Part shown: positions 6,901 to 55,112 of the stretch, one piece after another | How the letters are laid out: each line of letters opens with the position of its first letter | Numbering within the stretch: position 1 is the first letter of the stretch | Origin: Candidatus Raymondbacteria bacterium RIFOXYA2_FULL_49_16 | GTDB taxonomy: Bacteria > Fibrobacterota > OXYB2-FULL-49-7 > XYB2-FULL-49-35 | Direction of reading: 5' to 3' | Length of the DNA: 64,000 nucleotides | Assembly: GCA_001789205.1 (NCBI GenBank) | Contig: MFYT01000023.1 | Span: forward strand, 19,003 to 83,002 | Made by a program: the position numbers and the translations under genes | Notes under the pieces: model-generated | What the model was told of the DNA's origin: nothing | Seen by the model: the letters and a program-made list of their open reading frames with translations, nothing else | The model's database searches: none

Positions 6901-7289
6901 TTTTCGCTAATTTCTATCACGGTTTCACCGAGTTTGGTGTCCACCACGGATATGGTGGCGATGAATTCAGCGCGCTGTTTGCGCAATTGGCCAATGGCAA
7001 GAAGGTCGATGCCCAGTTCTTTTGCCGCTGAACGGTAGCATTCATCGTTGCCGCAGCCGCCCATTTTTTCAATGAGGGCCGCCAGCGCCACTTTGGATTT
7101 TATCGAGAACATTTTGGTGTCAGAGAGCGCGGCAAGCACTTTTTGTTCGAAAAAGTCGACCATTTCCGTATTGGCGCCGGGCGCCCGCTTTATTTCAAGC
7201 AGCGTCAGGGAACGTTCAGCGGACACCGGAGAAGCCAGTATACTTGTTATAAGCGCGCCAATGGCGACGATAGAGGAAAAATATTTCAT
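3906..7289 (-). CDS. large outer-membrane-type protein: signal peptide, right-handed beta-helix (NosD/pectin-lyase-like) region, C-terminal beta-rich domain ending in Phe
   Basis: 1127 aa. N-terminus MKYFSSIVAIGALITSILASPVSA. Central repeats are beta-helix-like (NCSFQNNS..., hydrophobic/Asn ladders). The long Tyr/Gly/Ser-rich alternating C-terminal region ends ...YYGGGVFNLLF, an OMP beta-barrel-like terminal aromatic. Confidence 0.5.
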   Translation of the reverse strand: MKYFSSIVAIGALITSILASPVSAERSLTLLEIKRAPGANTEMVDFFEQKVLAALSDTKMFSIKSKVALAALIEKMGGCGNDECYRSAAKELGIDLLAIGQLRKQRAEFIATISVVDTKLGETVIEISEKLPGDVMLVSDKWVKDFVLQLEPLSLEAEAIDAKELAESEEAAKATVIMQDEIDGTLSTDKSPYLLVGNVVVPANKTLTIEKGVTVLVGGDYSTIVVYGQIMAEGVEGAPIVFKSAKKDAKAWDWDRIYIRGNQRSYFTWCTISNSNFGIHVDNGNATIANCSFQNNSISCIYALQSDVQVRYTQLGKGHIVGLNVDRGSKVSVDSGLIHNITHGVVCHPFSTLNMSRTRIEDNDFGIITDKRAQVKLEDIWVLKNRVGVLTDQEIKSNRLFMIKRNVEDLRVVTPEEVAKLMPEPQKITAVKVREKEFRDTVGFKGDFLSAPSRGESFTARMGLLGQVSLGLTYRAVNDLNESVHANIADSALPHQTTYIPGFRPELSLYLQSKVGDRESDLTINGYGNYNKMGSTTGDDHLRNLEAYRNIQKFEVINLTTTLPGHEIVLGDFSEDQSEISVSSRQIRGLKYEKTSTLEQGRSLDMSISGGQSTIPYPKGLKPDMLDSNTTPIRQEWLGLASVKSNVSRDLSVGAHFLTTRHVNNPILYPGVSLDSTELYGADPKLQSYNSGINATMQIRDNLSAFAEVDIGYADTLSTDVDSGDGSSFAYSKDTLIHHNFNLTQMTAGLIGVNFNLSGFDATVEYIRAQHDFYTGGNPSIKPQVGNLNKARFNGSKSFDVNILSGLTKSIDLNTAFDWEAAAKEETSIKPDFLGEDPIMVADSVAGDSVVNDPSLSFLSQPVENKLKGGLDIKMPIGPFSFEPNFSYYYEWVPALKRDAKSKDMKISVDGSEETVNATEYTDAEGRMTFGGALVYIPSYSSEVLTSMRLKLDGGVILINDMNRFDPALSYADTLQWEKNDGHQIKTKFDFALKLFKSRIGNKLKTSYQIRTKKYKDEAKQLFRLEDRFEVKVIPQKLTLNLKGYFSNQNTDYKEEKNNADGVWTGAFNKVNEVLKVYGVESEIKVGLTIMMSISVKGGYEYGTDTAESGGENFKTYYGGGVFNLLF

Positions 7290-7418
7290 AGGCTATGTCC
7301 CTTTTTTGGCTGGGGTTGTGTGTCTGCCGATAATATAATTATAGAATTGGGCTATGGGCAAAAAAGAAAAAGACGGCGCTTTCGCAAGCGCCGTCTAACT
7401 GGTTCTATGGTTTCCGGT

Positions 7419-31030: not shown

Positions 31031-31968
31031 TCAAGGCGGACGGGGGTTACCCATCAGGTCAGTCAGTTCATGACGCAGCCGCCGGCATTTCTCGCCGATT
31101 TTTTTGCGAGCCTCATCCCCAATTCCGATGGTCGTCAGTTCAATCAATTCCAGATGGGTAAACAGCCCATAGTAGTTTTTTCTGTAAACGATAGTGTAAT
31201 TTTTAACGGGCAATAGTTGTCGCCGCATGCTCAGGGGTGTTTTCGCGGTGAACTTCTCTGGTCCTTTACGCAAGAGATACAGTTGGAGCAGGTTATAGGC
31301 CAGCATTGTAAAAACGGTTTGATTAGCGACAAGCGAGAAAGCACGAGAGGTAAAGCGGGTCAAGTCGCTGAAACACTTTAGTTGGCGGTATCTTTCTTCA
31401 ATAGCTGTGCGTAAATGGTATTCCCGCCCCGCCGTAGCTGGGTTGTGGTTTTGTTGGGTACTGAGCAGCAACCAGGTTTCTTCGTGGCCGTCAGCGTAGT
31501 ACTCCTTGTTGGCAATGACTGTCAATGGTACTGTACAGGATGACCAGCTGGTAAATTCGCCGATAGCCGCTGCTTCTTTCTTCACAATGACAGTATCCGG
31601 CGCCGGAGCCGGTTGTTCCTGTTTAACCTCTTTTTTATACGTTTTCCAGAACAATTCCGTTTCTGAAACTAGCCTGATGTTTGGCTGGCCGATTAATGCA
31701 TCCAGTACGGCAATTGCCTGGAGTGGCGTCAGGGGGTTTGGCAATATTCCGGCGTGCGTCGTTATACGCACAAATGAATGCGCAATTTTTCCAGCACGGC
31801 CGAAAGCGTTTCCTTGTCTTCAAGCGGCACATGGGGAGTTCCCATGGAAAAGGAGAAGGAGGGCAGGGTGAACAGTTTTCTATTGCCTGCTTCAGAATGG
31901 CCTCGTGCAGGCAGATTGTCGTTCTGGTCATGGTTTTTCATCTCCAGTTTATATACCATCATATTCAT
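31031..31968 (-). mobile_element. decayed IS4-family (DDE_Tnp_1-type) transposase, frame-disrupted
   Basis: The 246-aa ORF carries the C-terminal DDE-region pattern ...HLRTAIEERYRQLKCFSDL...VFTMLAYNLLQLYLLR (Y..R..IE..F+.LK ... YNL). Upstream coding continues in two other frames (31635-31931 and 31762-31968) without a single intact ORF. Confidence 0.5.
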
Positions 31969-32285: not shown

Positions 32286-35200
32286 TTGTTATGGCATCAA
32301 AAAATTATGGGAAGGCAGGTTGGAGTGAAAACAAAACACTGCTGTTTGTTTCTTTTATTGATATTCACGACTGTTTCTTTTGCGGTCACGACGCGATATG
32401 TCTCTGTCGGCGCATGCACTGATTATACCAGCGGCAGCGCCTCTGTCGATTCCGGTTCTCTCGTGGTCACTGGTACAAGCACAGTCTGGCTCGACAGCAA
32501 CCGGGGCTGCGGAGACAGCATCATAATAAACAGCACCGGCTACACCGTCGATTCCGTGACCTCAAACACGCGGATCGTACTCACCTCTGCCGCCACCGCC
32601 ACATATAGCGGTTCCACATACAGCGTCAAACGCAAGAAATCCTCATTCTCCTCATGGGAAAGCCAGAACAAGAACCTTGTTACCGCAGACCAAAACGAGG
32701 TGGCGATATTTTACAATGACGGCTCTGAGTTCACTGCACAGGACATAAACGGATGGACAACGGATTCGCTGCATAGGATAACCATGACCGCGAACGCCTC
32801 CAACCAGCATAACGGAATAGAGGTATCGGGCGCAGTAATCAACTGCCAGGGCGGGGTCTGGAATCTATATATAGGCTGCACAACGCTTGAGAATCTGGAA
32901 GTTAAGAATTCCGGCGGCTACGGATTATATCTTGCTGGCGTGAACAATGTTGTGCGCAACTGCCTGTTTCATGGCGGCAGCACGCATGGCATTCACGTGT
33001 ATTACAACGGTTCAAAAGACAGTATTTATAACAACATCGTGCATGGCTTTGATTCCGCGGGTATCGACATTTCCACCAACCAGTGGAACCTTGTTGCCAA
33101 TAATACGGTGTATGGCTGCCATAAGGGCATACGCAGCAGCCATGGAAATTACTCATATAACAACATGTACGTTGTGAACAATCTCTGCGCTGGCAATGGC
33201 GCGGACTACTGGGAAGTGCCCGGATCAGTCGGCTTCAATTCCAACGACAGCAACAATATTTCCAGCGACAGTTCTCTTGCTTTGGTCGGCGCAGGGCCGC
33301 ATTGCAAAAACAATGTCACCCTTTCTCAGATAGCATTTGCGGACACGGCAACCGCAACAAGAGACCTGCATATAACATCAACAAGCATTGCCCGCGATTC
33401 AGGCGCTAACCTGAGCAGTTATTTTTCAATTGATATTGACGACAGCACGCGCAGCGGTTCCTGGGACATTGGCGCTGATGAGTATTTTGCGACAACACCT
33501 GTTTATAAAATACGCTTTGTCTCCATCGGCTCCCGAGCCGATTACGCTTCCGGCAGCGTCTCAGTCGATTCCGGCTCCCTCGTCGCGACCGGTACAAGCA
33601 CAGCCTGGCTCGACAGCAACCGTGGCTGCGGCGACAGCATCATAATAAACGGCGCTGGCCATACTATCGACTCAGTGACTTCCAACACTCGTATTGTTCT
33701 TGCGGAAAGAGCAAATGCCGCGTATTCAGGAAACAGTTATTCCATTAAGCGCAAATATGCCACATTACAGGCATGGGCGAGCACGCACAGGGACCTTGTT
33801 ACGGCCAACCAGAGCGAAATGGCGTTGCTGTATAACGACGGAGCGGAGTTTGTAGTCAGCTGGTTAAGCCACATAGACGATGGGTGGAATACGGATTCGC
33901 TGCATAGGCTGACCATATCCGCGGATGCCAGGAACCGGCACACGGGTATCGCCGGTACCGGTGCAGTGATAAACTGCCAGGGCAGCGTCTGGAATCTTTA
34001 TAAAGGCTGGACAACGCTTGAGAACCTAGAAGTCAAAAATTCCAGCACCTACGGGTTATATCTTGCTGGTATGAATAATGTTGTGCGCAACTGCCTGTTT
34101 CACGGCGGGGACAACCGGGGCATCCACGTAGCGTATACGGGAGTAAACGACAGTGTTTACAACAATATTATATACGATTTTGATTCCGCAGGCATAGACA
34201 TTGCCACAAACCAATGGAACCTTGTCGCAAACAATACTGTGTACGGTTGTTTTAAAGGCATACGAAGCAGCCACGAAAACTATGTTTATAACAACATGCA
34301 TGTGGTCAACAATATTGCCATGGGAAATGTTTATGATTTCTGGGAGCTTGCCGGTTCCGTGGGATTTGACGGAAACGACACCAATAATATCTGCGGCGAC
34401 GCCAGCCTGAACACAATCGGCATTGGGTCCAAGAACCATTATAACGCAAGCTTTACCAGCATTGCTTTCATTGATACGGCAATTGCAAGTTGCGATCTGC
34501 ATATTCACAGCTACAGCGTGGCAAAGAGCGCTGGTGCGGATTTAAGCGGATATTTTACCACAGACATAGATAATGTGACCCGTACCAGCCCCTGGGACAT
34601 TGGCGCTGATGAATATACCGGGCCTGGGGAAATAGTGCTTTCAGACCATCCGGCAGGCCAGGAACCGAATGCATTCACAGGCAAAGGGTCAGAGACAAAT
34701 GCCGAACTGTTTGCGTTCAAATTGTATTCCGTGGATAACCCGGCGATAACACGCCTTGTCTTTGACATTTCCAATATAAATGGCCTGACCAATGCGGACT
34801 GGGCGGGTGTTGAGCTTGTGGTTGATGCTGACAGCAATGGGAGCATTGGTACAGGGGAGAACACGACAGTCGGCGGTGCCGGGGTAGTGAATCAGGATTC
34901 AGGGATAATCACCTTTTCCACCAGTTTTTCCGTGAACGGGACAAAATATTATATCTTGCGGGCTGATTTTGCTTCGTTGTCGCACAATGATGGGGTTACG
35001 ATTTCATTTAATTCAGATAGTGTTATAACAACGGCTGATATTTCTGGCAGTGTTTCAGCTGCGCAACACCATGAATGGAATCCGTCAGGCATTTCGAAAC
35101 GGACCACGAGATACAACGACAAAGCGCAGGTCGATTACCTGATTATTACCAAGGATGAACCCCGAATTCTTAATGAATTTAAGCGCCTTGCGACCTATAA

Positions 35201-38200
35201 ACAGGCCAAGGGCATGAAAGTTAAGATAGTGACAGCGGACAGCATCAAGACCATATTCGAAGGTTCTGACCTCCAGGAAAAGATCCGAAAATATATTCAG
35301 TATGCAAAGAAAGAATATAAGGTCACCTGGGTGCTTCTTGGCGGTGATTATGCGATAATTCCTCCGCGTTACCTCTATTCCAGCATGAACGGCGGCAGCG
35401 CCATTTTGAGTGACATGTATTATGCGTGCCTTGAATCTGATTTTAACCTGGACAAGGACAATCATATCGGCGAAGTCGCGGATAATGCGGACATTTTTCC
35501 GGATGTTGTGCTTGGCAGGCTACCCTGTTCCGACTGGAACGAGGCTCGGAAAATGATTGATAAAAGCATAGAATATGAATATAAAGGCCTTGCTGGAGCA
35601 GGGGAGCGTAAAATACTGCTCTCCGGTATTGACATGCTGGGGAAAAGATACAGCCCGCAGGACTCGGCATATATCGATGATGGAACTTATTATAACCATA
35701 GGGTACTGAAAGATATAATCAAAGCCGGGTTTGACGGAGATTTTACCGAAATATTTGAAGATTCGATCACCCCGGCAGACTCGGTCATCGACGATTCCAT
35801 AAAAGTCCCATTGAATACATTCATCGATTCTTTGTTCGGGAACAGTACCGCCTCGCCTGCAAACCTGTGGATCCATTATGGCCATGGTGCGGAAGAGGCT
35901 GTTATCTACAATAACCACAGCCTTCTTACAACGCATCTTCTCAAAAAAGAAGTCAATGCAAAATATCAGAAAAACGCCGGACATGCCCTGATTATTGGTT
36001 GCGGTACCCTGACGCCGAATTCGGCTTCCCTTGCAAAGAAAATGTTGACCTATTATGAAGGCGCAAACACCTATTTTGCCGCATCGAACTGGGATTATCC
36101 TTCAACCTCTCTGAATATCCACAAAGCATACATGCAGGCTTTGTTTGAAGACACGGCCATGTCCGCGGGTCTTGCAGCAACTCTGGCAAAACTCAATGAG
36201 GAAGCTGCATCTGGTGCGGAGCAGTTTGATTTTTCAAAACGTTGGGTATTATTGGCGTACAATTTCCTTGGCGATCCTGAACTGCCGCTCTGGAAAGACA
36301 CGCTGTCTGAATCAACAAGGCTGAATGTTCCGGGCATTGGTTCTCTGGTCATTGTTGAGGGCGCACAGATTTGCACTCTTGATGTTCAAACAGGGTCTGT
36401 ATCGGCCGATACAAACACACGCGTCTGCATATTCCAGGACAACTCGAACATAACGCGCGCCAGGGTGAACGCAGACGGTAAGGCAATACTGAACTTTACG
36501 GCAAAGAAGAGCGCATACGAGCCGGTTTTTATTGGCGTAATGCACGATAAGTTTGCGCCAGTAATGTACCGCATAGACAGTGTTTCAAACGTATCGGGCC
36601 CCAGTTTGTTTTTAATAAAAGAATTGACCAGAGATTCAAGCAAAACAAGTTCAGACACTCTCCATTTTTCATTTGAAATCAGGAATGAGGGTGGGTCAGA
36701 TGCGTATGGAGTTGGCGCTATCATTTCATTGACAGACCCTGCGGATTCGGGTTTTGTAGCCATTCTTACGACCATAGACAGCACGGATTCCATTATCGTG
36801 TCCGACCAGGCTACGATGGCTTTTTCCATCAAACTCAACAGGGCCAAACAGACACACCGTATTATTACTTTTAATACAACGGTTGGCTGTAATGGGGGTC
36901 ATGCATACAGCGGAAGATTTGCAATAGATATTGGCGAGAAACGGCTTGTACTGCAGAAAGGTACAACCTCGAAAAGCGGAAATGAATATACTTTGCAATA
37001 CACAGTTAAAAATAAAGGTACGCATGCCATTACTGGCGATAGCTTACGCCTTATTGCAACAGAAGGTGACAGCGCAATTGTGGACATATCCCCGGCAATG
37101 CGGACAGTAACGACCATTCAACCGGATTCACAAAGGACCACAAATACATTTATCGTAACTGTATATCCGGATTGGCCATACCAGACATCACTTTTGAAAC
37201 TTGTAATGGCTTATGATGGTATTCGCGAGACGTTGACGGTAGACCTGGAAGCCCCGGATACAATACCGTCATTTGTGGCAGTGCCCTATGGGCCGGGCAA
37301 AATATACCTTGAATGGGCAAAACCAGCGGATAATGATATTGCCGGATATTATCTGTATCGCAAACACGCAGACAGCGCATCATTCAGGCAGATCAACGGC
37401 CTCATAGGAAATTCCTTTTATGTTGATGAAGATACCGCAGCAATCAAGAGCAACAACGGTTTTGTTTATTACGTAAAGGCGTTTGACCGTTCCATGCATG
37501 TTTCAGATAGTATTTACGACACGGTTAAAGTAGAACTTGCCATGAAATCAGGGTTCCCCATGGACCTTGAAAACGGTCATGGCGGTGCGCCAAAGATAGC
37601 GGACCTTGATGGCGACGGTGATCAGGAATTCATGTTTCCCATGGCTTCAAACGAAGTCAAGGCGTATCATCATGATGGGCAGGAATATTACCAGAAATAT
37701 GAGAACGACGGATATGCGTTCAGTTTCTCTTCAGGTCAATATGCTATGCATCATCAGCTGGGTATAGGCGATGTTAATGGAGACGGCACGCAGGACATGG
37801 TTATTGCCGCTGGTGAGAGAGTGTATGTGTATAGGGGTGGAAACTACCCGGACACTGTGCAGATATTCTCTCAGCATACGGATTGGGCAGGGGAGAACCA
37901 GGATTTTAATATTACCGCGCCGATTGTGTATGATTTTGACAATGACAACAAGAGCGAAATTGTAACCGCTTCATTCAATGGCAAGGAATATGTTTTATGG
38001 ATGGATGGCAGTACTTTGAAGATAGATAGTTGCAATACGGTGTATGGTTTCGACAGGCCATTCAGTCTTGGCGATGTTTATGGTGATTCCAAAAAAGAAA
38101 TAGTGGGTTATTCTTCCACATGGGGTGGGCCCTATGTTCATTTCTTCCATTACGCTGACACTGGATTATGCGACCACGATTCACTGAAATGGAAGAGGGA

Positions 38201-45929: not shown

Positions 45930-47822
45930 ATGAGATTATTAGTCTGGCTTCTATTGTCTTCCCCGCTTCTCATTACCGCTCAAAACATCGCCAATATCAA
46001 CAGCGACACACTGAACAACAAAGCACTGCTTCCCATATCCGACACCGCGAAAATCCCGGAAATGAACTTCAAAGACGCTGATATCCGCGATGTTCTCCGC
46101 ACCCTTGGCATGCAATATAGCCTCAACATCTGGCTCTCACCAGACGTCAGAGGCAACATCCCGGTCAATTTCAAAAACATCAAAGTCAAAGACGCCCTGG
46201 ATTTTATCATTACCAAATACGGTTTTCAGTACAAAATCCGCAATGGCATCATAGAGGTCTCCAAGCCCACTCCGCCGCCAGCACCGCCACCGCCAAAGAT
46301 CCCCTGCGTTGTCAAACTCGTAAACGGCAACCTCTCGCTTGATCTCCGCCAGGCTTCCATTGATACAGTGATCAGACTCATCATGAACGAATGCAGCGAA
46401 AACATCATTGTTGAAAAAGGCGTTACTGGAACCTTGACATGCCTTTTGAACGAAATTCCGCTCGAAAAAGCCCTTACAGCTCTTTTTGAGAGCAATGGTT
46501 TTGAGATTGTAAAAAAGAACGGAATCTGGTATGTGGGCAAACCTGTTTGGACAGCAAGCAAAGACGAAGGTGGACAGAAAAGCAGGCTTGCCATTAACGT
46601 GGATAGCGGCAAGGTGAAGATGGAAGTGACCGACGCCTCGCTGGGCGATGTCATAAACATCATAAGCTCCCGGGCGGGCATGTCCATCTTTGTGTACGGC
46701 AGGCTCGAAGGCAAAATCAGCGCAAAAGTAGAGGACTTCATTCCAGTGGACGACGCACTTAAATATCTCCTTACCAACACCAAGTACACTTTCTGGAAGG
46801 AAAAAGGCATATATTTCATAGGGGAAAACACAGCCCAGGCAGTCAATACCGCTGAACTGGTAAAGCTTAAATACATGAAGGCAGAAGACGTATCAAAACT
46901 TCTTCCAGAAGCCATCATGAAAAGCCTCAGGGTCAATGTACTCAAGGAGCAGAACGGGATTATTTTTGTGGGCACATACGATTATATTTCATCCGCAAAA
47001 GAGTTCATCAACATCGTGGACCAGCCAATTGCCCAAATACTCATCGAAGCGCTCGTTGTTGATTTTTCAATCACAAAAGCGCGTTCAATAGGATTAAAGC
47101 TGTTTACCGCAGGGGGCAAGGCAGGCGGCCAATCATTGTTTCCAGATGTTAATATTACCGCCACTGGGGATGATATCAATAGCCTCAGGGACCAGCCCAT
47201 CAGTGATTACTTTACATTAAAACAAATTGCCCGCCTACCCTCGCAGTTCAGGGCCCAGATAAGCGCCCTTGAGCAGGAGGGGCTTGCAAACGTGGTTTCC
47301 ACCCCGCAAATAGCAACGCTCAATGGCAACAATGCCACGATACTGATAGGAACCACCCAATATTTTCTCCTCAGGTCATCCATCACCACAACCGGCGTAA
47401 ACCCTGTTGTTTCGCAAAGCCAGCATTTTGAACAGATAAACGCGGATGTAAGCCTTTCGGTCACACCCTGGCTCACTGGGGACAGGGAGGTTACGGTTGA
47501 AGTCATGCCAAGTTTCCACATACCCGGCAATTCAGTGAACGACAGCATACCGCCGCCCATCAACAAACGAGAGATCAAGTCAACAGTCCGTTTACGCGAT
47601 GGGGAGACGTATGTTCTGGGCGGCCTCATTGAAGAAACAGAGCGCAAGTCCATGAGCGGGTTGCCCTATTTGTCCAAGATACCATTCCTGGGCTGGTTTT
47701 TCCGGACCAACAAGACCGAACACCTCAAGACCCGCATGATGATCTTTCTTACACCCCACATTTACTATGGCAACGAAGGGGCTGTTGACAAAGTAAAGAT
47801 GATCAAGAGCCTGCAGGAATAG
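45930..47822 (+). CDS. gspD: secretin (T2SS GspD / PilQ family)
   Basis: C-terminal secretin domain: VVSTPQIATLNGNNATILIG, GETYVLGGLIEETERKSMSGLPYLSKIPFLGWFF, MIFLTPHIY. N-terminal N0-like domains and a Pro-rich linker PPPAPPPPKIP. Confidence 0.85.
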   Translation: MRLLVWLLLSSPLLITAQNIANINSDTLNNKALLPISDTAKIPEMNFKDADIRDVLRTLGMQYSLNIWLSPDVRGNIPVNFKNIKVKDALDFIITKYGFQYKIRNGIIEVSKPTPPPAPPPPKIPCVVKLVNGNLSLDLRQASIDTVIRLIMNECSENIIVEKGVTGTLTCLLNEIPLEKALTALFESNGFEIVKKNGIWYVGKPVWTASKDEGGQKSRLAINVDSGKVKMEVTDASLGDVINIISSRAGMSIFVYGRLEGKISAKVEDFIPVDDALKYLLTNTKYTFWKEKGIYFIGENTAQAVNTAELVKLKYMKAEDVSKLLPEAIMKSLRVNVLKEQNGIIFVGTYDYISSAKEFINIVDQPIAQILIEALVVDFSITKARSIGLKLFTAGGKAGGQSLFPDVNITATGDDINSLRDQPISDYFTLKQIARLPSQFRAQISALEQEGLANVVSTPQIATLNGNNATILIGTTQYFLLRSSITTTGVNPVVSQSQHFEQINADVSLSVTPWLTGDREVTVEVMPSFHIPGNSVNDSIPPPINKREIKSTVRLRDGETYVLGGLIEETERKSMSGLPYLSKIPFLGWFFRTNKTEHLKTRMMIFLTPHIYYGNEGAVDKVKMIKSLQE

Positions 47823-47870
47823 GGGCTGGCAGAAGTGTGGGTACAAGTGAATTCATCCCCCAAAAATGTA

Positions 47871-47906
47871 TTTTTTTTGAATGCCCCCCCTAACAGGGGG
47901 GCATTC
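47871..47906 (+). other. perfect 11-bp G/C-rich hairpin preceded by T8, between gspD and the gspL-like gene
   Basis: TTTTTTTT GAATGCCCCCC ctaaca GGGGGGCATTC. The U-tract lies 5' of the stem on the plus strand, so it is not a canonical intrinsic terminator in either orientation. Confidence 0.4.
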
Positions 47907-48096
47907 CCGCGAACATTACTATGGGGGGTAAAATATTAAGTCCTTTATCCGTGGTATTTCTTATTCCCTGCATAACTCTTCCTGCCTTGGCGTCACACCC
48001 AACGGCACGACCACTCTCCCCCAAAACTTTGATCCAGACGGCGAACGCCTTACCCTCTCATATTTCGGCCATACCCTCATCATCCGGGTTCTTGAA

Positions 48097-49275
48097 GTGC
48101 CAGTTGCCGAGGACACGCTCGACTGGCTCATGAAGCACCCTGAGGCATTCCTGCCGCATTCCATGACCTTTGATGATGTCTGTTTTGATTACATCGTGCA
48201 ATCATCCGACAACACCGTGAACAGCGTGGTTGTCGCAATTGCAAGAAAAGACGCGCTTGACCAGGAACTGGAAATATTCAGAAAGTCCGGGTTCCGGTTT
48301 TCGCGCATAACCAATGGCCCCCTTGAATTCATCCTTGCAAACCTGCAAAAATTTGAACAAACAGCATGCGGGGTTGTGCTTATAGAGAAGGAGCAGGCCT
48401 TTGTTTTTGTCCTGGTAAACAGGGACATAAAATTATACAAGCATATTACTATCGGAACCCATGCTGCGGCAAATGACATCAAACAGTTCATAGAAGAAAT
48501 AGATCCTGTGCTTGTCCAATATTGGGAAATGAATTTGTATGGAACACCCATTGAAACATGGTACATTGCAGGCGAATGTCCTTTGTACATAGATTATTGC
48601 AAACAGCAGGGTCGCAATGTTACGCAAATGCAAAGTGCGTTTCAGTCTGTCGGTGAAGAAATCGTATTTCACACGGCAATGTCAACAAGCAAGAAGGGCG
48701 GCAACAGGATCCAGCTTGCGCAGAAGACAGACAAAGACCTTGCCCGTCGCATGCGTTTTAAGAGGGTTTACCGGGTAGCCGCCAATATCGGCCTTGCCGC
48801 AGCGGGACTTGTCATTGCGTTCCTGCTTTTGTTGCGCCTGGGCCTGTACGCATGGGATTACAATACCCGCGACGCATACGCCTCGTACAGCGGGACAATA
48901 GAAAAACTTAAGTCTGTTAAGCAGGAAAACAGAAAATTGTCCCTTGAACTGCGGCAGGACCAGGGCCTTTTTGCCAACAGGTCTGGCGTGTTCAGGCTTC
49001 TTGAATCTGTGCGCAACAGCGTCCCGGACTCAGCCTGGTTCTCATCGCTCAACTATCAGAAAGGCGTGGACAAGGGGCCGGAACTGCTTGTCACAGGCTT
49101 TGCCGTCAGGGAAGAGGCGCTTAAGAATTTATTGGTACAGCTCGAAAGCAAGAAGGAATTCGGCAAAGTGACGCTCAATTTTACCAAGGACATTCCCGCT
49201 GCAAAGGCCTTTGGGCTTTCCAAGGGCAAGGCGCGGTATGGGCTGGTTTATTTTAAAATTACAATGGCATTATGA
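48097..49275 (+). CDS. GspL-like bitopic assembly protein (PilM-like cytoplasmic domain, TM, PilN-like periplasmic coiled-coil domain)
   Basis: LMKHPEAFLPHSMTFDDVCFDYIV resembles the PilM/GspL actin-like N-terminal region. TM VAANIGLAAAGLVIAFLLLL, then a coiled-coil periplasmic part. The frame is open upstream to 47932 with PilM-like sequence (SFIRGISYS...) but no ATG. First in-frame GTG is 48097. Confidence 0.45.
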   Translation: MPVAEDTLDWLMKHPEAFLPHSMTFDDVCFDYIVQSSDNTVNSVVVAIARKDALDQELEIFRKSGFRFSRITNGPLEFILANLQKFEQTACGVVLIEKEQAFVFVLVNRDIKLYKHITIGTHAAANDIKQFIEEIDPVLVQYWEMNLYGTPIETWYIAGECPLYIDYCKQQGRNVTQMQSAFQSVGEEIVFHTAMSTSKKGGNRIQLAQKTDKDLARRMRFKRVYRVAANIGLAAAGLVIAFLLLLRLGLYAWDYNTRDAYASYSGTIEKLKSVKQENRKLSLELRQDQGLFANRSGVFRLLESVRNSVPDSAWFSSLNYQKGVDKGPELLVTGFAVREEALKNLLVQLESKKEFGKVTLNFTKDIPAAKAFGLSKGKARYGLVYFKITMAL

Positions 49276-49826
49276 AACAGTTTGCCTTTATAACAGATAA
49301 TCCTGGTTTCCGGAAATACAGGTTCGAGATATTATCAGCCATTGTCCTGGCTGTTATCCTTGGCCTTGTGCTTTATATTATTCAGCCTCTTGCCAGTTCG
49401 TGTATGGACAATGTATCTGATCTTTTTGGCCGCAAAGAGGCAATTGCCGAAGCGCAGAACTTTGAGAAGAACCTGAAAAGGGTCATTGGCCAGAACAACG
49501 AGCTTAAAGCAAAGGCAGCAGGCCTTAAGATGAACATGTCCAATGGCCGCACGCTCTCAAACATCTACGCAATGGTAAATACGGCATCGAGCTCTTCAGG
49601 CATTACTGTTGTCACAACAAACGCTTTGCCGGAAGAAGAGGGGGGCAATTACATCAGGCTCAGGTTTGATATTGAGGTCAAAGGGCCGTATAACGCGGTG
49701 GGAGGTTTTTTGGAATCAATGGAAAAGTCCGGGTATATTGTAAGCGTCGATGAACTTGTCATGGACAATACCTTTGGACCTGAATTATCAGGCAAACTTC
49801 GAATATCGCTGTATTTATATAAATAA
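49272..49826 (+). CDS. GspM/PilO-like protein (N-terminal TM plus periplasmic domain)
   Basis: TM ILSAIVLAVILGLVLYII, a coiled-coil segment, 184 aa, ATGA overlap with the upstream gene. Assignment is by architecture and context only. Confidence 0.35.
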   Translation: MKQFAFITDNPGFRKYRFEILSAIVLAVILGLVLYIIQPLASSCMDNVSDLFGRKEAIAEAQNFEKNLKRVIGQNNELKAKAAGLKMNMSNGRTLSNIYAMVNTASSSSGITVVTTNALPEEEGGNYIRLRFDIEVKGPYNAVGGFLESMEKSGYIVSVDELVMDNTFGPELSGKLRISLYLYK

Positions 49827-49835
49827 CAATAAGTT

Positions 49836-50294
49836 ATGAAGAAAAAAGTAATAATTGTCATGATAGCCATAGCTGTTGTGGTCTGGGACATCAATTTACG
49901 CAAGATATTGTATGGCTTTAAAGGGGACGCTATAACAAGCCCTGATGAATCCAAACAGGATTCAGCCCAGATAACGTCTGTTAACGCGCCAGAAGGCCCT
50001 GCATTCAATCCAGAGGGCCGCGATCCATTTGGACCAGCAGTTATCAAGCAGCCTGCAAACAGCACACCCCAGAAGGTGGGTAAACCAACGCAGTCGGAAA
50101 CCCAGCCCCCGCCATGGAGGTTGGACGGCGTTCTTTGGCAAGAGGGCAACCCTGTTGCCATCTTAAAGCAGACCAATACTGACCGGACCGAGATGGTTAA
50201 GGAAAAAGGCGTTGTTGAAGAAATGGTTATTGAGAAGATCGAGAAGGACAAGGTGCATGTTCTTTACAGGAAAAAGGCCTTTGTCATCCAATAG
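49836..50294 (+). CDS. GspC/PilP-like protein
   Basis: TM MIAIAVVVW, Pro-rich linker, C-terminal beta-domain GVLWQEGNPVAILKQTNTDRTEMVKEKGVVEEMVIEKIEKDKVHVL resembling the PilP/GspC HR domain. Confidence 0.4.
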   Translation: MKKKVIIVMIAIAVVVWDINLRKILYGFKGDAITSPDESKQDSAQITSVNAPEGPAFNPEGRDPFGPAVIKQPANSTPQKVGKPTQSETQPPPWRLDGVLWQEGNPVAILKQTNTDRTEMVKEKGVVEEMVIEKIEKDKVHVLYRKKAFVIQ

Positions 50295-51630
50295 CCTCTC
50301 AAACCAGGATGGCTACATCGCCTACCTGGTACTCACGCTGCTTGTCATCATAGCCTTTCTGCTCAACGCTGTTTTTCTGGGCTATGCGCGGCAGAACAAG
50401 GGACTCGAAGATGCGAAGAAAAAGATACAGCTGGGATATGTTTTACGCGTGGCAGAGGATTATATAGGCAATCTTATGAATTCACCAGACGGGCCAATTG
50501 GCCTTTTGGCTGAAAATGAATTCAAAAAAGAACTCGATCCAGAGAGCGGTTTTATCATCTCCGCTTCACGAAAAGGGTGCGTGATGGATTGCGTCATAAA
50601 GGCCCGGTATAAAGACCGTGTCGTGACCGTGAACAAGACAATCGGGCAGAGGCACAAGTATCTCCAGAACAGCGCCCTGTACGTGTTTGGGGGCATGTCC
50701 GGGCTCATTCTCGGGGGCAAAGCAGCAATAGAAGGCGATGTGCATCTGCCGTCAGGAACAGTGAACACCAGCAGCTCGGGGTATTTTAGATATACAGGGC
50801 AGGTCCCGGTCAAAGGCCGGGTACTTGGCGATGCTGGCAAGTACGACGCATATCTCGATAACAGGCTTGCAATGGCAGAGGCTGCCACTGCCGAAGCCCT
50901 GATAAACAGGGTGGTGCAAAAAGGCGCAGGAGCTGCATCGGGCAATATATCAGGGGCCTTTTCAAACCCTGGCACTGTTTACGAACATTCTGGAGACGCA
51001 ATATTGGACAATGCTGGGTCAATTGATATGAACAAGGGTACGCTGGTAATGACCGGAAATTTATTTCTAAAGGGCCAGAGCTCCTTGTGTAACGGGTCTA
51101 TTTACATTAAAGGGGCCATTGAATTAAGGGACAACAGTTCACTTACTGAAGTTATTGTTGTTTCCGGAAACGGCATATCAGCATTTAATCAAACTGCGCT
51201 CAAGGGACAGTTTTTCACATCAGGGACAATAAGTATCAACAACTATACGATGTGCAGGAATTTCACATTATTATTTTCAGATCCAATGCTTTTCAATAAC
51301 GAGACAGGCAGTCCGGGAATCAGGATAATGGACCGGGCAAAAGTCCATGGCGTTGCTGTGTTGAACGCGCCAGAGCAATCCAGGAACATAGGGTTTGTTC
51401 TCGATGAAGAGGCAACTATCAATGGTTTTCTGTATTGTTCCGCAGGCGCGGACATTCGCGGCATGGTCATGGGCCAAACATGGGTCAGCACCCTTGCCTG
51501 CCAATACGACCGCACCCTGCACGGCAGCACCATGAAGGACGGCAGGCTTGAAGTTTTAAAACAGGACTGGCAAATCTATGTTCCCCCACTTTTTGGCGTA
51601 AAAAAGGACCTTGCGTTCTATGATGAATGA
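50257..51630 (+). CDS. large minor-pseudopilin-like protein (GspK-like?), N-terminal hydrophobic helix without Glu+5
   Basis: N-terminal ...NQDGYIAYLVLTLLVIIAFLLNAVFLGY (G then hydrophobic, Leu at +5). A large Gly/Asn-rich periplasmic domain follows. Start is uncertain: the frame is open from 50212 and overlaps the previous gene. Confidence 0.3.
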   Translation: MFFTGKRPLSSNSLSNQDGYIAYLVLTLLVIIAFLLNAVFLGYARQNKGLEDAKKKIQLGYVLRVAEDYIGNLMNSPDGPIGLLAENEFKKELDPESGFIISASRKGCVMDCVIKARYKDRVVTVNKTIGQRHKYLQNSALYVFGGMSGLILGGKAAIEGDVHLPSGTVNTSSSGYFRYTGQVPVKGRVLGDAGKYDAYLDNRLAMAEAATAEALINRVVQKGAGAASGNISGAFSNPGTVYEHSGDAILDNAGSIDMNKGTLVMTGNLFLKGQSSLCNGSIYIKGAIELRDNSSLTEVIVVSGNGISAFNQTALKGQFFTSGTISINNYTMCRNFTLLFSDPMLFNNETGSPGIRIMDRAKVHGVAVLNAPEQSRNIGFVLDEEATINGFLYCSAGADIRGMVMGQTWVSTLACQYDRTLHGSTMKDGRLEVLKQDWQIYVPPLFGVKKDLAFYDE

Positions 51631-51961
51631 AAAAGGTTTTACCATGGCCGAAGTCCTGGCAGCGCTGGTCATTTTCAGCCTTGTCGCGGTCCCTGCCACG
51701 CTTACCATGACACGGATTGCAAAGGGCCTAAAAACAACAGACAAGGTCCTTGGCCTGCGTATTGCCCAGGAATCGCTGAACACCAGCCTTGCCGATGAAT
51801 CGGAACGATATAATATCGAACGCGAAGTGATGATCAATGATAAAAAATGTAAAATTATCCGTATGGTTGAAGAAAACGATTTGTCCATTATCACGGTATC
51901 AGTATTCTGCCAGAGAAGACCCCTTGCATCGCTCAAAGGCTATATTTTCAGGAGGAGTTAG
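51611..51961 (+). CDS. minor pseudopilin (GspI-like)
   Basis: Prepilin-type N-terminus EKGFTMAEVLAALVIFSLVAV (G-F-T-x-x-E). 116 aa. Confidence 0.5.
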   Translation: MRSMMNEKGFTMAEVLAALVIFSLVAVPATLTMTRIAKGLKTTDKVLGLRIAQESLNTSLADESERYNIEREVMINDKKCKIIRMVEENDLSIITVSVFCQRRPLASLKGYIFRRS

Positions 51962-53154
51962 TGGCAAAATTTATTTATAAAGCAACAGACCTTCGGGGTT
52001 CCCATATCCAGGGCGAGCTTGAGGCAGCTTCAAAACAGGATGCTGTTGAGGCGCTCGAAAAGCGCAAACTGACTATTTTGTCTGTAAAACGCGACATTGA
52101 CCTTAATCCTTTTAAAAACCGGGTTTCGGGAGCAGTCATAAGCCGTTTTACGCGCCAGCTTTCGGCAATGGTAAGCAGCGGCCTTCCATTGGCAGAGGCC
52201 CTTGGGGTGCTGTCAAAACAGCGTGATTCGCGGAAAATGCAGACCATGGTACAATCTGTGCTCGATGATATAAAGGCAGGCAAACCCTTTCACGAAGCCC
52301 TTGGCAAGCACCAGGCAATACTGGGGCCATTGTATGTCAGCCTTGTTAAAGCGGGCGAAAGCGCAGGAGCCCTTGGCGAAATTCTGGAACGGCTTGCCGA
52401 CCATTTGGAAAAAAGTGATGCAATAAAACGCAAGGTACGCGGCGCGCTCCTGTACCCGGCAGTTATTTTGCTTGTCGCAATCTCAGCAGTCGCCATATTG
52501 CTGGTGTTCGTGGTCCCTTCTTTTGCAAAGATGTTCGCGGACCTCAATAAAGAATTGCCAATGCTTACCCTGGTGATAATAAACGCCTGTACTTTTATAA
52601 AGACGAAAATAATATTGATCCTTGCCGCGGTTGCGGCTCTTTTTCTTGCGTATGGCCGTGTAAAAAAGACCGCGCGTTTCAGATCTGCAATGGATGGGTT
52701 TGTTCTTAAAATACCCTATTTTGGCAGCCTGTTGAAAAAGGCGGCAATAGGCCGTTTTACCCGCACGCTTGCGACACTGCTTAAGGGTGGCGTTCCCCTG
52801 GTTAAGGCGCTTGAAATTTGCAGCGCAGCAGCGGGAAATATGCGGATCGAGAAAGTGATCCTGGACAGCGTTAGAAATGTTTCCAGCGGTAACCCTCTCC
52901 ATGAATCGCTTTCTAAGGACCCGCTTTTTCCTGAAATGACCATCCAGATGATTGCGGTGGGAGAAAAGATAGGGGAATTGTCTAAGATGATGGAACGGGT
53001 CGCGCTGTTTTACGACGGTGAGGTGTCTGCGGCAGTGGACAGCGTATTGTCCATTATCGAGCCAGTCATGATTGTTTTTCTTGCGGTAATTATTGGCGTT
53101 ATTCTTATTGCCATGTATTTACCGTTGTTCGACATGATGACAGGGATGAGCTGA
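51961..53154 (+). CDS. gspF: type II secretion / type IV pilus platform protein GspF/PilC
   Basis: Two repeated GspF domains. N-terminal MAKFIYKATDLRGSHIQGELEAASKQDAVEAL is typical. Three TM segments. 397 aa. Confidence 0.85.
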   Translation: MAKFIYKATDLRGSHIQGELEAASKQDAVEALEKRKLTILSVKRDIDLNPFKNRVSGAVISRFTRQLSAMVSSGLPLAEALGVLSKQRDSRKMQTMVQSVLDDIKAGKPFHEALGKHQAILGPLYVSLVKAGESAGALGEILERLADHLEKSDAIKRKVRGALLYPAVILLVAISAVAILLVFVVPSFAKMFADLNKELPMLTLVIINACTFIKTKIILILAAVAALFLAYGRVKKTARFRSAMDGFVLKIPYFGSLLKKAAIGRFTRTLATLLKGGVPLVKALEICSAAAGNMRIEKVILDSVRNVSSGNPLHESLSKDPLFPEMTIQMIAVGEKIGELSKMMERVALFYDGEVSAAVDSVLSIIEPVMIVFLAVIIGVILIAMYLPLFDMMTGMS

Positions 53155-53657
53155 TGCTGAAGAATCAGAAGGGTTACACCCTTACGGAACTTATCGTTGT
53201 ACTCCTGCTCATGTCCGTAGTATCGCTTTTTGCTTTTCAGGCATATTTGTATATCCAGAAACGGTATGTGGAATGGGAAAACGACAACCGGGCTGCCATG
53301 GTCATAATGCGGCTGACCCAGGGCCTTGAAGAGCATATTGGCAGGGCCAACCGGCTTATGATTGCTGAAAAAAGCAGTCTTGAATTACGGGACACAAAGG
53401 GTGTGCTCATCAAAGTTGAGGCAATGGACAGGAAACTGCTTATCGGGGACAGAAACATGCTCTCCGATGGGGCGTTGCTGCAACAGGTGGATTTCGAGTA
53501 CTCTTCGAGCGGAAAGCCCGAGGTGGAGGGCAACACCGGCGCCATTGATTGCGTGGCATATACCATAGTGTTCAGCCATGGAAAAAAGATATATTCATGT
53601 AAAGGAAGCATAGCCTTGCGTAAGCTCAATACATTCAACATTACGGGGACCGTATGA
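53154..53657 (+). CDS. pseudopilin (GspH/GspJ-like)
   Basis: Prepilin N-terminus QKGYTLTELIVVLLLMSVVSL. 167 aa. Confidence 0.55.
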   Translation: MLKNQKGYTLTELIVVLLLMSVVSLFAFQAYLYIQKRYVEWENDNRAAMVIMRLTQGLEEHIGRANRLMIAEKSSLELRDTKGVLIKVEAMDRKLLIGDRNMLSDGALLQQVDFEYSSSGKPEVEGNTGAIDCVAYTIVFSHGKKIYSCKGSIALRKLNTFNITGTV

Positions 53658-54082
53658 AGGGAAAAAGACGCACGCCGTTATTGAACCAGAAGGGGTTCAC
53701 GCTCACCGAACTTCTGGCCGTCATCATCATTATCGGCGTGCTGGCCATGATAGCTATTCCAAAATATATGAGCGTGGTTTCAAAGTCCAAAGTTGCTGAA
53801 TTCAAGCCCATTTTGCGGCAACTGTACACGCTGGAGCAGTCGCATTTTGACGAATATGGAAAGTACACATCAGATTTAGAAACTCTCAGTTTTGATGTGC
53901 CCAAATCTGAATTTTTCGATTATTCCATTGAATGCGACACGCTCCATTTTACCGCAAAGGCAGTGTGCAAGGGGAATATTAAGAATTCCAAAGGTGACCT
54001 TCTCAATGGCGAATGGGTGGGCATCACCGAAAAGGAAGACCGTGTGGGCAGTGATAAACTGAAGAAATTCGCGGGGTGGTGA
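53654..54082 (+). CDS. major pseudopilin / type IV pilin-like protein (GspG-like)
   Basis: QKGFTLTELLAVIIIIGVLAMIAIPKY is the class III signal plus N-terminal helix typical of GspG. 142 aa. Confidence 0.65.
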   Translation: MKGKRRTPLLNQKGFTLTELLAVIIIIGVLAMIAIPKYMSVVSKSKVAEFKPILRQLYTLEQSHFDEYGKYTSDLETLSFDVPKSEFFDYSIECDTLHFTAKAVCKGNIKNSKGDLLNGEWVGITEKEDRVGSDKLKKFAGW

Positions 54083-54188
54083 GCTATAGTTTGTTTAGGA
54101 AGATTAACACGAGGAGATCAAGGTATTTAATCTGTCATACCCCGAGGTAGACGAGCAATAAACACTTAAAGAAGATTGGAGTAAAATT

Positions 54189-55094
54189 ATGGCATATAAA
54201 AGATTAAAATTACTTATTATATGGGAAGTCTTATTGTTGGGTCAAATATATGGATCGACCTATATTACTATTTCGTCAGATAAAAAAGATTACTTGGTTT
54301 ACGACCCTATTTATTTAACAATGGAATTTGACACCTTAAAAGCGCCAGCTAATTTTATTTTTGGTAGTCTTGAAAATTCGAACGTTAATATGGTTTTAGT
54401 AATAGAAACTCCAAGTGGGATTCTTAGTTACACACCGCCAGAAACAGACATTACCATCGATAGAGAAGCATTTCGTATAGGTAGAATATATACTACTGAA
54501 TACGCTACAATCGTATTGCATAGAGGAATGGCAATAACGTCACTACCAGGGAAATACTTGTTATTCATTAGGCAAAAAACACAAAATAAAACAATATCCA
54601 ATAAAATTCAATTAGTCATATCAGAGCCAGTGTTAAATAATGATACAAAGGCAATGAGAATAATCAAAAACAAACCAGAAGCATATGCATTGTTTATATA
54701 TCTTGAAGGAGGAGAACATATTAAAGAAGGTTTTGCAATTCTTAAAGACCTTTGCGAAACAAATTCATCATATACAGAAATTGCCAAAACTGTATTAATG
54801 CTGAATTATAGCGAACGGTATTATGATTGGAAACAAAATAAAATTGAACGAGAAATAGATTTTAATAAAGTAGAGAAATATTTAAATGAAGTCGATATTG
54901 ACAAAATGCCTGAATATTTAAAATTAAGAATGTGTAGTAAAATATTACGGAACACCAATCGTGGTCGAATTAATAACTCTCTTTTTAATAAGCTGAATAC
55001 AATAAAGAATAATGTGACTGGTAGTAAACGAGTTCATAAAACACGCTTATATAATTTTTTAAAGATGAGTGACGGTTTAATAAAGAAGAACTGA
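54189..55094 (+). CDS. hypothetical secreted protein (low GC)
   Basis: Signal-like LKLLIIWEVLLLGQIYG. No recognisable domain. AT-rich. Confidence 0.35.
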   Translation: MAYKRLKLLIIWEVLLLGQIYGSTYITISSDKKDYLVYDPIYLTMEFDTLKAPANFIFGSLENSNVNMVLVIETPSGILSYTPPETDITIDREAFRIGRIYTTEYATIVLHRGMAITSLPGKYLLFIRQKTQNKTISNKIQLVISEPVLNNDTKAMRIIKNKPEAYALFIYLEGGEHIKEGFAILKDLCETNSSYTEIAKTVLMLNYSERYYDWKQNKIEREIDFNKVEKYLNEVDIDKMPEYLKLRMCSKILRNTNRGRINNSLFNKLNTIKNNVTGSKRVHKTRLYNFLKMSDGLIKKN

Positions 55095-55112
55095 ATTAAA
55101 AAGGATTATAAT

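Follow-up and report, generated by a model that had tools for sequence, protein, structure and literature searches.

A 64,000-nucleotide stretch of the contig MFYT01000023.1, from the genome of Candidatus Raymondbacteria bacterium RIFOXYA2_FULL_49_16 (the whole stretch is called the window here), harbors on its forward strand a gene for a giant secreted protein that joins a gingipain-type C25 peptidase to an FG-GAP propeller and several beta-helix modules. The gene occupies one uninterrupted frame at 32286..42053, with 3255 codons from the first TTG, in line with the 3255 aa given in a preliminary description of the sequence. This single open reading frame (ORF) stands, with a likely correction of its start that shortens the product to 3242 amino acids (aa), as in the NCBI model (P0001), whose start matches the GTG at 32325. 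This GTG is likely to be the true start, and is favoured over the longer frame because GGAAGG, which resembles a ribosome-binding site (RBS), and the GTG AAA that follows are kept at the ortholog locus. The ortholog has been modelled with 3308 aa and with 3288 aa, and the extra 20 aa, MKLKIFLLRYPVILATMASA, are the signal peptide predicted from the GTG start. Residue numbers are counted here from the ATG at 32307, and subtracting 6 gives the numbering from the GTG.

The N-terminal MKTKHCCLFLLLIFTTVSFA had been read as a signal peptide from the outset, and its hydrophobicity and its conservation in the ortholog agree with that reading. It is the sole strongly hydrophobic segment of the protein (Kyte-Doolittle 1.92), and signal peptidase I is predicted to cleave it after SFA, leaving VT as the first residues of the mature chain. 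The hydrophobicity of the whole protein reveals no further transmembrane-like stretch and no C-terminal hydrophobic tail, and its composition is rich in Ser, Gly, Asp, Thr and Asn. Lipoprotein anchoring was considered and rejected, as the N-terminus has no lipobox. Scans for promoters and terminators at both ends of the gene gave chance-level matches only.

The core of the protein (aa ~943-2194) is composed, in this order, of the C25 domain, an Ig-like domain, CARDB-like domains, an FN3-like domain and a seven-loop FG-GAP propeller. It is preceded by two tandem beta-helix modules and a small unannotated domain, and followed by an unassigned stretch and two further modules (Table 1). Pfam detects Peptidase_C25, Beta_helix (three stretches), FG-GAP_3 and FG-GAP in the whole protein, while NCBIfam gave nothing with the whole protein and sub-threshold matches only with its segments.

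Table 1. Features of the giant gene, in window coordinates
Feature	Position	Strand	Basis
Start GTG and 20-aa Sec-type signal peptide MKTKHCCLFLLLIFTTVSFA (predicted)	32325..32384	+	Hydrophobicity, conserved RBS/start
Beta-helix module M1 (aa 27-392), cap DIDDSTRSGSWDIGADE	32385..33482	+	Pfam Beta_helix; cap at nt 33465
Beta-helix module M2 (aa 399-769), tandem duplicate of M1, cap DIDNVTRTSPWDIGADE	33501..34613	+	Cap at nt 34596
Unannotated domain of ~140 aa between M2 and the peptidase (aa 775-915)	34629..35051	+	No model match
C25 (gingipain family, clan CD) cysteine peptidase catalytic domain	35136..36290	+	Pfam, profile against PDB, AlphaFold2/Foldseek
Ig-like domain, counterpart of the gingipain IgSF domain	36309..36581	+	Profile alignment, Foldseek
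Two Ig/CARDB-like beta-sandwich domains	36594..37256	+	Pfam CARDB, E 9e-5
FN3-like domain (not significant)	37269..37541	+	Weak PDB FN3 matches
FG-GAP (integrin-alpha-type) beta-propeller with seven Ca-loop motifs	37554..38876	+	Pfam and motif search
Stretch of ~270 aa of unassigned fold (aa 2191-2463)	38877..39695	+	Sub-threshold matches only; partly colinear with P0064
Putative beta-helix module M3a (aa 2464-2799), other subtype, start ALYVRPSGNDGNDG, degenerate cap DRDYTYMHRGYLIDIGAVE	39696..40703	+	Cap at nt 40686
Beta-helix module M3b (YSVGQNT... type), cap DFDGDTRSGSNCEIGGDEK at the C-terminus of the protein	40740..42050	+	Cap at nt 42030

The protein is 100% identical to the NCBI 'hypothetical protein' A2487_13900 (3242 aa) of Candidatus Raymondbacteria bacterium RifOxyC12_full_50_8 (phylum Candidatus Raymondiibacteriota), which is present on four contigs. 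Its ortholog in other Raymondbacteria bins (P0002/P0235) shares 58% identity over 96% of the length, is colinear with it, has the same domain order, the first module excepted, and is found on 22 independently assembled contigs (ENA, JGI, NCBI, Logan). A third member, P0064/P0234, labelled Elusimicrobia RIFOXYB2_FULL_49_7, shows 47% identity in the C25 domain and is colinear with the giant from aa 913 to past 2334. P0064 is likewise terminated by the cap motif that closes the beta-helix modules, and both it and the ortholog stop 1-2 residues beyond this motif; therefore, the C-terminus of the giant is a natural one. As the source is a metagenome-assembled genome and M1 and M2 are internal repeats, the ORF could be thought of as an artefact of mis-assembly, repeat collapse or fusion of several genes, a danger already named in the preliminary description. 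Such an origin is extremely improbable: M1 and M2 share 65% protein identity and merely 72% DNA identity over 885 nt, so that their duplication must be old and too diverged for repeat collapse. In addition, the 9.7 kb frame has no interruption, the identical protein and the independently assembled ortholog recur on separate contigs, and the C-terminus is kept in the ortholog and P0064.

The C25 peptidase and the core of the protein

The catalytic domain matches the Pfam model Peptidase_C25 (PF01364) over its full length (positions 1-374 of 374, aa 944-1328) with an E-value of 7e-41 and 141.1 bits (gathering cut-off 23). A word-indexed homolog search with this segment gave two proteins, and an exhaustive HMMER search of representative proteins was used instead, which retrieved 5476 relatives at E<1e-3. 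Likewise, a direct phmmer search of the segment against the PDB gave spurious low-complexity matches to Protein A, with RgpB at E 0.008, and was replaced by a profile search, in which a profile of 18 sequences (A1) matches RgpB (1cvr) at E 5e-34, PorU at 1.6e-23 and Kgp at 4e-20. The candidate catalytic residues pointed out beforehand, the His of IHYGHG (nt 35883-35885) and the Cys of IIGCG (nt 36000-36002), which are H273 and C312 of the segment, are invariant in two independent MAFFT alignments (A1 and A3), and both are present in 54 of the 62 homologs that cover the two columns. When the profile is aligned to 1cvr_A, RgpB His211 (YTGHGSE) and Cys244 (DVACVNG) fall on the invariant H and C columns; these RgpB numbers, counted by hand along the printed alignment, agree with the published catalytic dyad. 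The fold is equally informative. An AlphaFold2 model of aa 915-1440 (pLDDT 74.9, pTM 0.82) retrieves with Foldseek Kgp (6i9a, E 1.1e-22) and RgpB (1cvr, E 4.5e-21, target-normalised TM-score 0.76), with TM-scores up to 0.77 and an alignment to the catalytic and IgSF domains of both gingipains that spans more than 510 columns. Membership of family C25 is thus solid on profile, dyad and fold, and the C25 region and dyad first proposed from the letters are confirmed.

Because it combines the gingipain fold with an intact His/Cys dyad, the domain most likely acts as a clan-CD cysteine endopeptidase. The residue aligned to RgpB Asp163, the S1 residue, is neither Asp nor otherwise acidic, in a loop whose alignment is unreliable. 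The profile alignment to RgpB extends through its residues ~350-426, and after the catalytic domain there is a weak match to Peptidase_C25_C (E 0.063), where beta strands are modelled. The inhibitory N-terminal prodomain Propeptide_C25 (PF08126) gives no match, either over the entire protein or with the 150 aa ahead of the C25 domain; it is present in 14 of the 42 nearest representative C25 relatives.

The gingipains RgpB and Kgp of Porphyromonas gingivalis (MEROPS family C25; PDB 1cvr, 4rbm, 6i9a) share the catalytic family and fold of the giant, also with an Ig-like domain behind the catalytic one, and show ~16% identity to it in the structural alignment. Unlike them, the giant lacks Propeptide_C25, the C-terminal sorting domain (CTD) of type IX secretion (T9SS) and the haemagglutinin/adhesin domains. 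Instead, it carries beta-helix modules, CARDB-like domains and an FG-GAP propeller in a chain of 3,242 aa, and it belongs to a candidate phylum.

It could be argued that external substrates are not the target of the C25 domain, and that this domain either cleaves the giant precursor into modules or works as a PorU-like transpeptidase. PorU, the T9SS sortase, is itself a C25-family protein that the profile matches with the E-value given above, and there is a partial match to the NCBIfam model T9SS_sortase (E 1.7e-13). Gingipain polyproteins are proteolytically processed, and self-processing has been proposed for the embedded peptidase domains of other giant proteins. However, the sortase model (NF033707) scores 49.1 bits (cut-off 420) and is matched at positions 366-534 of 1095 only, that is, in its peptidase part; on this score, identity with PorU was rejected. 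RgpB and Kgp are far better matches than PorU (PDB 6za2) in both sequence and fold, the TM-score to the latter being 0.34. The ortholog genome encodes a separate PorU-like protein of 1588 aa with C25 and FlgD_ig domains, and no cleavage sites are identifiable in the sequence of the giant. Self-processing or a PorU-like role is therefore unlikely, and cleavage of external substrates is the preferred reading.

Beyond the peptidase, the CARDB-like region also gives weak matches to DUF7507 and DUF11 and is colinear with P0064. The FN3 domain proposed in the preliminary description does not reach significance, as there is no Pfam fn3 match in the giant and the weak PDB matches of this region, all of them FN3 domains, have E-values of 0.5-1.5; fn3 occurs somewhere in 6 of the 42 C25 relatives. 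The propeller, for which at least six calcium loops had been announced, is significant in Pfam both as FG-GAP_3 (E 2e-20, 73.4 bits) and as FG-GAP (E 1e-14, 54.1 bits), with three stretches each. It contains seven loops of the D-x-[DN]-x-[DN] type, at aa 1766, 1822, 1876, 1979, 2041, 2095 and 2151, which are putative Ca-binding sites. The domain that precedes the peptidase (aa 775-915), matched by no Pfam or NCBIfam model, has similar stretches (L.L..H.AGQ...LF.F.L...), as read by eye, in the giants P0022, P0028, P0031 and P0042, and it is a candidate new domain family.

Beta-helix modules and the DIGADE cap

Four beta-helix modules, the third of them a probable one, and not the three counted initially, can be delimited in the giant, this third module (M3a) and its cap having been overlooked. 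A regular expression run over the six frames finds the four caps at the positions given in Table 1 and no cap motif elsewhere in the window. Their alignment, which had been suggested as a check for three of them, gives the pattern F....D[LF]H[LI]...S.A...G..L.....D[IF]DG..R....WDIGADE. M1 is built of a small N-terminal beta subdomain (YVSVG...NRGCGD), the beta-helix and the cap, in this order. The Pfam model Beta_helix (PF13229, cut-off 25.9) matches M1 with E 1.4e-9 (38.3 bits) and M2 with E 6.8e-11 (42.5 bits). M3a begins like a pectate-lyase-type beta-helix and ends in HRGYLIDIGAVE; the evidence for its family is weak (DUF5123, E 9.5e-4; NCBIfam models of pectate lyases, E 0.02-0.1, at its N-terminal edge), so that it is put forward as a probable beta-helix. 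An AlphaFold2 model of M3b (pLDDT 81.7, pTM 0.88) contains a small N-terminal beta subdomain and then a long run of short strands, closed by a cap with pLDDT of 80-91.

The same motif is widespread in related proteins. In 61 homologous giants there are 219 occurrences, spaced by ~400 aa and up to 11 per protein, and the labels of these homologs include Parcubacteria, Moranbacteria, Patescibacteria, Chloroflexi and Fibrobacteres. Only 7 of the 219 caps lie within 3 residues of the C-terminus, while the other 212 are more than 15 residues away from it. M3b, the final 444 aa of the giant, gives 182 matches to module copies in homologous giants, many of them end to end (positions 5-443 of 444); therefore, the end of the protein is a regular module end, and its last 60 aa are also homologous to its own internal caps. 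The motif DLH...D.DG..R....DIGADE is the conserved C-terminal closure of a family of ~400-aa beta-helix modules, and not an export signal.

The preliminary description had proposed that the cap, especially its C-terminal copy, could itself be a sorting or anchoring signal. In that sense, eight proteins end 1-3 residues past the cap (P0001, P0002, P0003, P0004, P0010, P0011, P0015 and P0064), and the M1 cap weakly matches the NCBIfam model choice-of-anchor Q (NF041518; E 0.008, positions 8-57 of 58), a domain typically found just upstream of sorting signals. This likeness is real, although it stays under the membership threshold (16.4 bits, cut-off 25), and the other three caps have no match to this model. 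Against a signal speaks the distribution just described, with module spacing, a non-terminal position in nearly all occurrences and a presence in proteins labelled Parcubacteria, Moranbacteria, Patescibacteria and Chloroflexi. In the giant, three caps out of four are internal, and the terminal module shows homology to internal modules over its whole length. The structure model places the cap, with good confidence, inside the beta-helix module, and homologs such as P0005, P0012 and P0026 bear the same caps plus a separate T9SS CTD-like tail. The proposal was accordingly discarded as very improbable.

A different C-terminal element is seen in P0007, P0009 (labelled Parcubacteria), P0018, P0019, P0020, P0027, P0033, P0034 and P0051, which carry, past the last cap or at the C-terminus, a repetitive tail of ~20-25 residues with patterns such as 'KxKxEGTQIKxEGDxKFE' or 'VRFGGxxxV'. 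This tail could serve as a lineage-specific signal or anchor at the C-terminus.

Known proteins of the pectin-lyase fold (PL6 alginate lyases, rhamnogalacturonan lyase, GH136 lacto-N-biosidase, Rhombotarget A, phage tailspikes and the proteins with an NCBIfam choice-of-anchor Q domain) have ~10% identity to the modules of the giant. Unlike these, modules of the giant type carry their own small N-terminal beta subdomain and form tandem arrays in giant proteins.

Secretion signals and genomic neighbourhood

The C-terminus of the giant had been described as devoid of a T9SS CTD, and this is the case. Neither type A (Por_Secre_tail/TIGR04183) nor type B (CHU_C) is detected by Pfam or NCBIfam in the whole protein or in its last 378 aa, even at E<=5. 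The positive control was the neighbouring gene at 44701-45795 (-), which encodes a Por_Secre_tail protein and matches both models, in agreement with the earlier mention of a CTD protein downstream. It had also been stated that the C25 peptidases of FCB-group bacteria are normally T9SS cargo with a CTD. This is true of most of the 42 closest representative C25 proteins, since ~26 have CTD-like tails when read by eye, but it was an overstatement, as the other 16 do not. Some of these 16 carry transmembrane anchors, and one of the 42 has a dockerin. Pfam finds Por_Secre_tail in 14 of the 42, FlgD_ig in 14 and CHU_C in five, and C25 is combined with FG-GAP in ten. The missing CTD of the giant is genuine, and mildly unusual with respect to its nearest relatives.

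The most informative relatives are four proteins of ~1,350 aa annotated as 'C25 family cysteine peptidase' (P0218, P0222, P0223 and P0227), which are colinear with aa ~943-2194 (E 1e-25 to 6e-53). Single high-scoring segment pairs of 1,230-1,350 aa align P0223, P0218 and P0227, and for P0222 there is a first one of 1,030 aa plus shorter ones. Three of the four (P0218, P0222 and P0223) end, soon after the propeller, in tails of the type SG[IV]Y[FL]...K[LK][ILV][ILM][IL]. These three uncharacterised proteins (FG-GAP plus a FlgD_ig/Por_Secre_tail CTD; P0223 labelled Candidatus Eiseniibacteriota) share 22-24% identity with the giant and have no beta-helix modules, whereas the giant has ~940 aa added N-terminally and, at the position of the CTD, ~1,050 aa that include two beta-helix modules. 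This comparison of architectures suggests that the CTD may have been lost or replaced. Among the giants, CTD-like tails are found in those labelled Raymondbacteria and Fibrobacteres (P0005, P0026) and in the unlabelled P0012 and P0023. Another group (P0022, P0025, P0028, P0031, P0042, P0045, P0054, P0056 and P0058) has cap-terminated beta-helix modules, a propeptide-like region and then a C-terminal C25 domain, at which the proteins end in LLGDPALxLR, without a CTD. Therefore, C25 is recurrent in beta-helix giants, with a varying position of the peptidase.

Other export routes were also considered. Type I (T1SS) and type V (T5SS) secretion, PEP-CTERM and LPXTG were rejected, given that the protein lacks both a hydrophobic C-terminal segment and a beta-barrel domain, and that it starts with a signal peptide.

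Downstream of the giant gene, a filament locus at 45930-59749 encodes a secretin (start at 45930, 3.9 kb from the giant gene), a PilN-like protein, a GspF/PilC-like protein, three prepilin-type proteins and a GspE/PilB-like ATPase. The preliminary description had taken it for a type II secretion system (T2SS). The secretin gene is indeed there, but the T2SS identity cannot be told from that of a type IV pilus: with NCBIfam, the secretin scores 204 as GspD (cut-off 351) and 227 as PilQ (cut-off 284), the ATPase scores 533 as GspE (cut-off 630) and 554 as PilB (cut-off 676), and GspF scores 362 (cut-off 424). All Gsp and Pil scores are similar and under the curated cut-offs, so the locus is ambiguous. 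It also encodes a 414-aa leucine-rich-repeat protein (56873-58117), and its secretin has an STN/FecR_C-like N-terminus.

Two low-GC islands, at 42063-44676 and 54189-56819, have a GC of 0.32-0.36, compared with 0.45-0.55 in their surroundings. Their ORFs give no Pfam match and have N-termini that resemble signal peptides. The first island, with three unrelated ORFs that have no counterpart at the ortholog locus, is situated between the secretin and the giant gene, and the second is inside the filament locus. Immediately past this locus, a second large secreted ORF (61317-64000, +, at least 893 aa) runs off the window; it contains seven CHB_HEX_C_1/Fn3_assoc repeats together with a PKD domain. 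BLAST of this ORF against the set of cap-type homologs gave no match, and it is not demonstrably a cap-type giant.

The filament machine could be a dedicated exporter of the giant, and perhaps also of the ORF that starts at 61317. Its secretin, PilN-like, GspF/PilC-like, prepilin-type and ATPase genes lie close to a gene whose product carries a Sec signal peptide and lacks a CTD, a beta-barrel and features of the T1SS type, and another large secreted ORF stands on the other side of the locus. Moreover, conserved T2SS-like loci adjoin the genes of giant proteins in Omnitrophota (West-Roberts et al. 2023, bioRxiv 10.1101/2023.11.21.568195). On the other hand, synteny gives no support, since the ortholog locus has no filament-type genes in the 10-kb flanks on either side. 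Between the giant gene and the secretin there are the three low-GC ORFs and, on the opposite strand, the CTD gene, and the machine may be a pilus, given the similar sub-cut-off scores of PilQ/PilB/PilC and GspD/GspE/GspF. T2SS substrates, moreover, have no linear signal that a sequence could show. A dedicated exporter at this locus is therefore conceivable but doubtful.

The comparison with the ortholog locus reveals how little is shared. The giant gene is the only gene common to both, at the DNA or protein level, and the downstream ORFs of the window have no homologs there, so that no conserved partner gene came to light. Upstream of the ortholog, 3 kb from the giant gene, is the 1588-aa protein with C25, CARDB and FlgD_ig domains mentioned above (L001 2293-7059), predicted to be a PorU-like or CTD-bearing C25 protease, of which no counterpart was found in the window. 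Downstream of the ortholog lie small ORFs, the gene of an OMP_b-brl_2 protein and genes for integrases and transposases (L001 23405-29826), and in the window a DDE transposase remnant (31031-31771, -) lies just upstream of the giant gene; therefore, the gene is found in variable, mobile-element-rich surroundings in both genomes. Two further contexts were uninformative: a search of genome contigs with the secretin gave a single distant Deltaproteobacteria locus, of no use for synteny, and P0003, a cap-terminated Raymondbacteria giant, lies at a contig end with only another giant and an M64 peptidase upstream, which says nothing on a T2SS.

Elsewhere in the window, the region 3906-10313 (-) encodes a 1127-aa Beta_helix/NosD-like protein without the cap and a 964-aa protein with FecR and Glucodextran_B domains, and genes for GH2, a rhamnosidase and an FGGY kinase are found at 24-31 kb. 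Together, these genes suggest a glycan-degrading lifestyle.

Proposed function and significance

The account that we favour, and consider somewhat more likely than not, is that of a soluble (non-membrane-spanning) giant mosaic exported by Sec, with a gingipain-fold protease, a Ca-loop propeller and four beta-helix modules, which would work at a surface and bind glycans or surface ligands. The proposed model is as follows. The N-terminal signal peptide would direct Sec export, giving rise to an extracellular adhesin-like protease whose C25 domain, probably active, would cleave as a clan-CD cysteine endopeptidase. Binding, or possibly cleavage, of polysaccharide or cell-surface ligands is the most likely role of the beta-helix modules and the Ca-loop propeller, and it would hold the protease on the surface of its substrate. 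The outer membrane would be crossed by a non-T9SS path, for which a T2SS-like machine is the best guess.

Several points weigh against this model. The protein has no recognisable signal for any outer-membrane system, yet a folded protein of ~350 kDa must cross that membrane. The absence of a detected C25 propeptide leaves the control of latency unexplained. Foldseek gave no significant PDB match for the beta-helix modules (best E 0.027), and they have no assignable catalytic residues, so that they may be either binding modules or enzymes. CTD loss is proposed from a comparison of architectures rather than from phylogeny. Likewise, activity, localisation, substrate, ligand binding, CTD replacement and the outer membrane route are all deduced, and not observed, properties of the protein.

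A parallel in organisation is offered by the giant proteins of Omnitrophota (bioRxiv 10.1101/2023.11.21.568195), which are also very large multi-domain secreted proteins that combine peptidase and carbohydrate-related modules near a GspD/E/F-like locus. The giant described here is ~10-fold smaller, has other domains (the paper mentions no C25) and no internal transmembrane segments, and its association with the locus is not kept at its ortholog. A more far-reaching proposal, which is quite unlikely, is that the cap-terminated giants of Raymondbacteria (this one, and possibly the ORF that starts at 61317) abandoned the T9SS and became cargo of the adjacent T2SS-like machine. If it were true, the coupling of giant genes and T2SS-like loci in Omnitrophota would extend to a second, unrelated phylum, and a gingipain-family protease would have switched secretion system, with its CTD swapped for beta-helix modules.

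The architecture is new, and it is built from known domain families; current understanding is not overturned, and the functional claims are to be read as conditional. What is gained is a domain-level annotation, with catalytic residues, for a family deposited as 'hypothetical protein' in a candidate phylum without a cultured member, the host of the giant being an uncultivated groundwater bacterium. A C25 core that usually comes with a T9SS CTD can exist with beta-helix modules instead, which provides a test case for the gain and loss of secretion signals. Finally, a beta-helix module of ~400 aa with a diagnostic cap builds tandem arrays in giants labelled as several phyla, including Parcubacteria and Moranbacteria, and the use of the cap as a module boundary should make it easier to parse and annotate such giants and keep it from being taken for a sorting signal.

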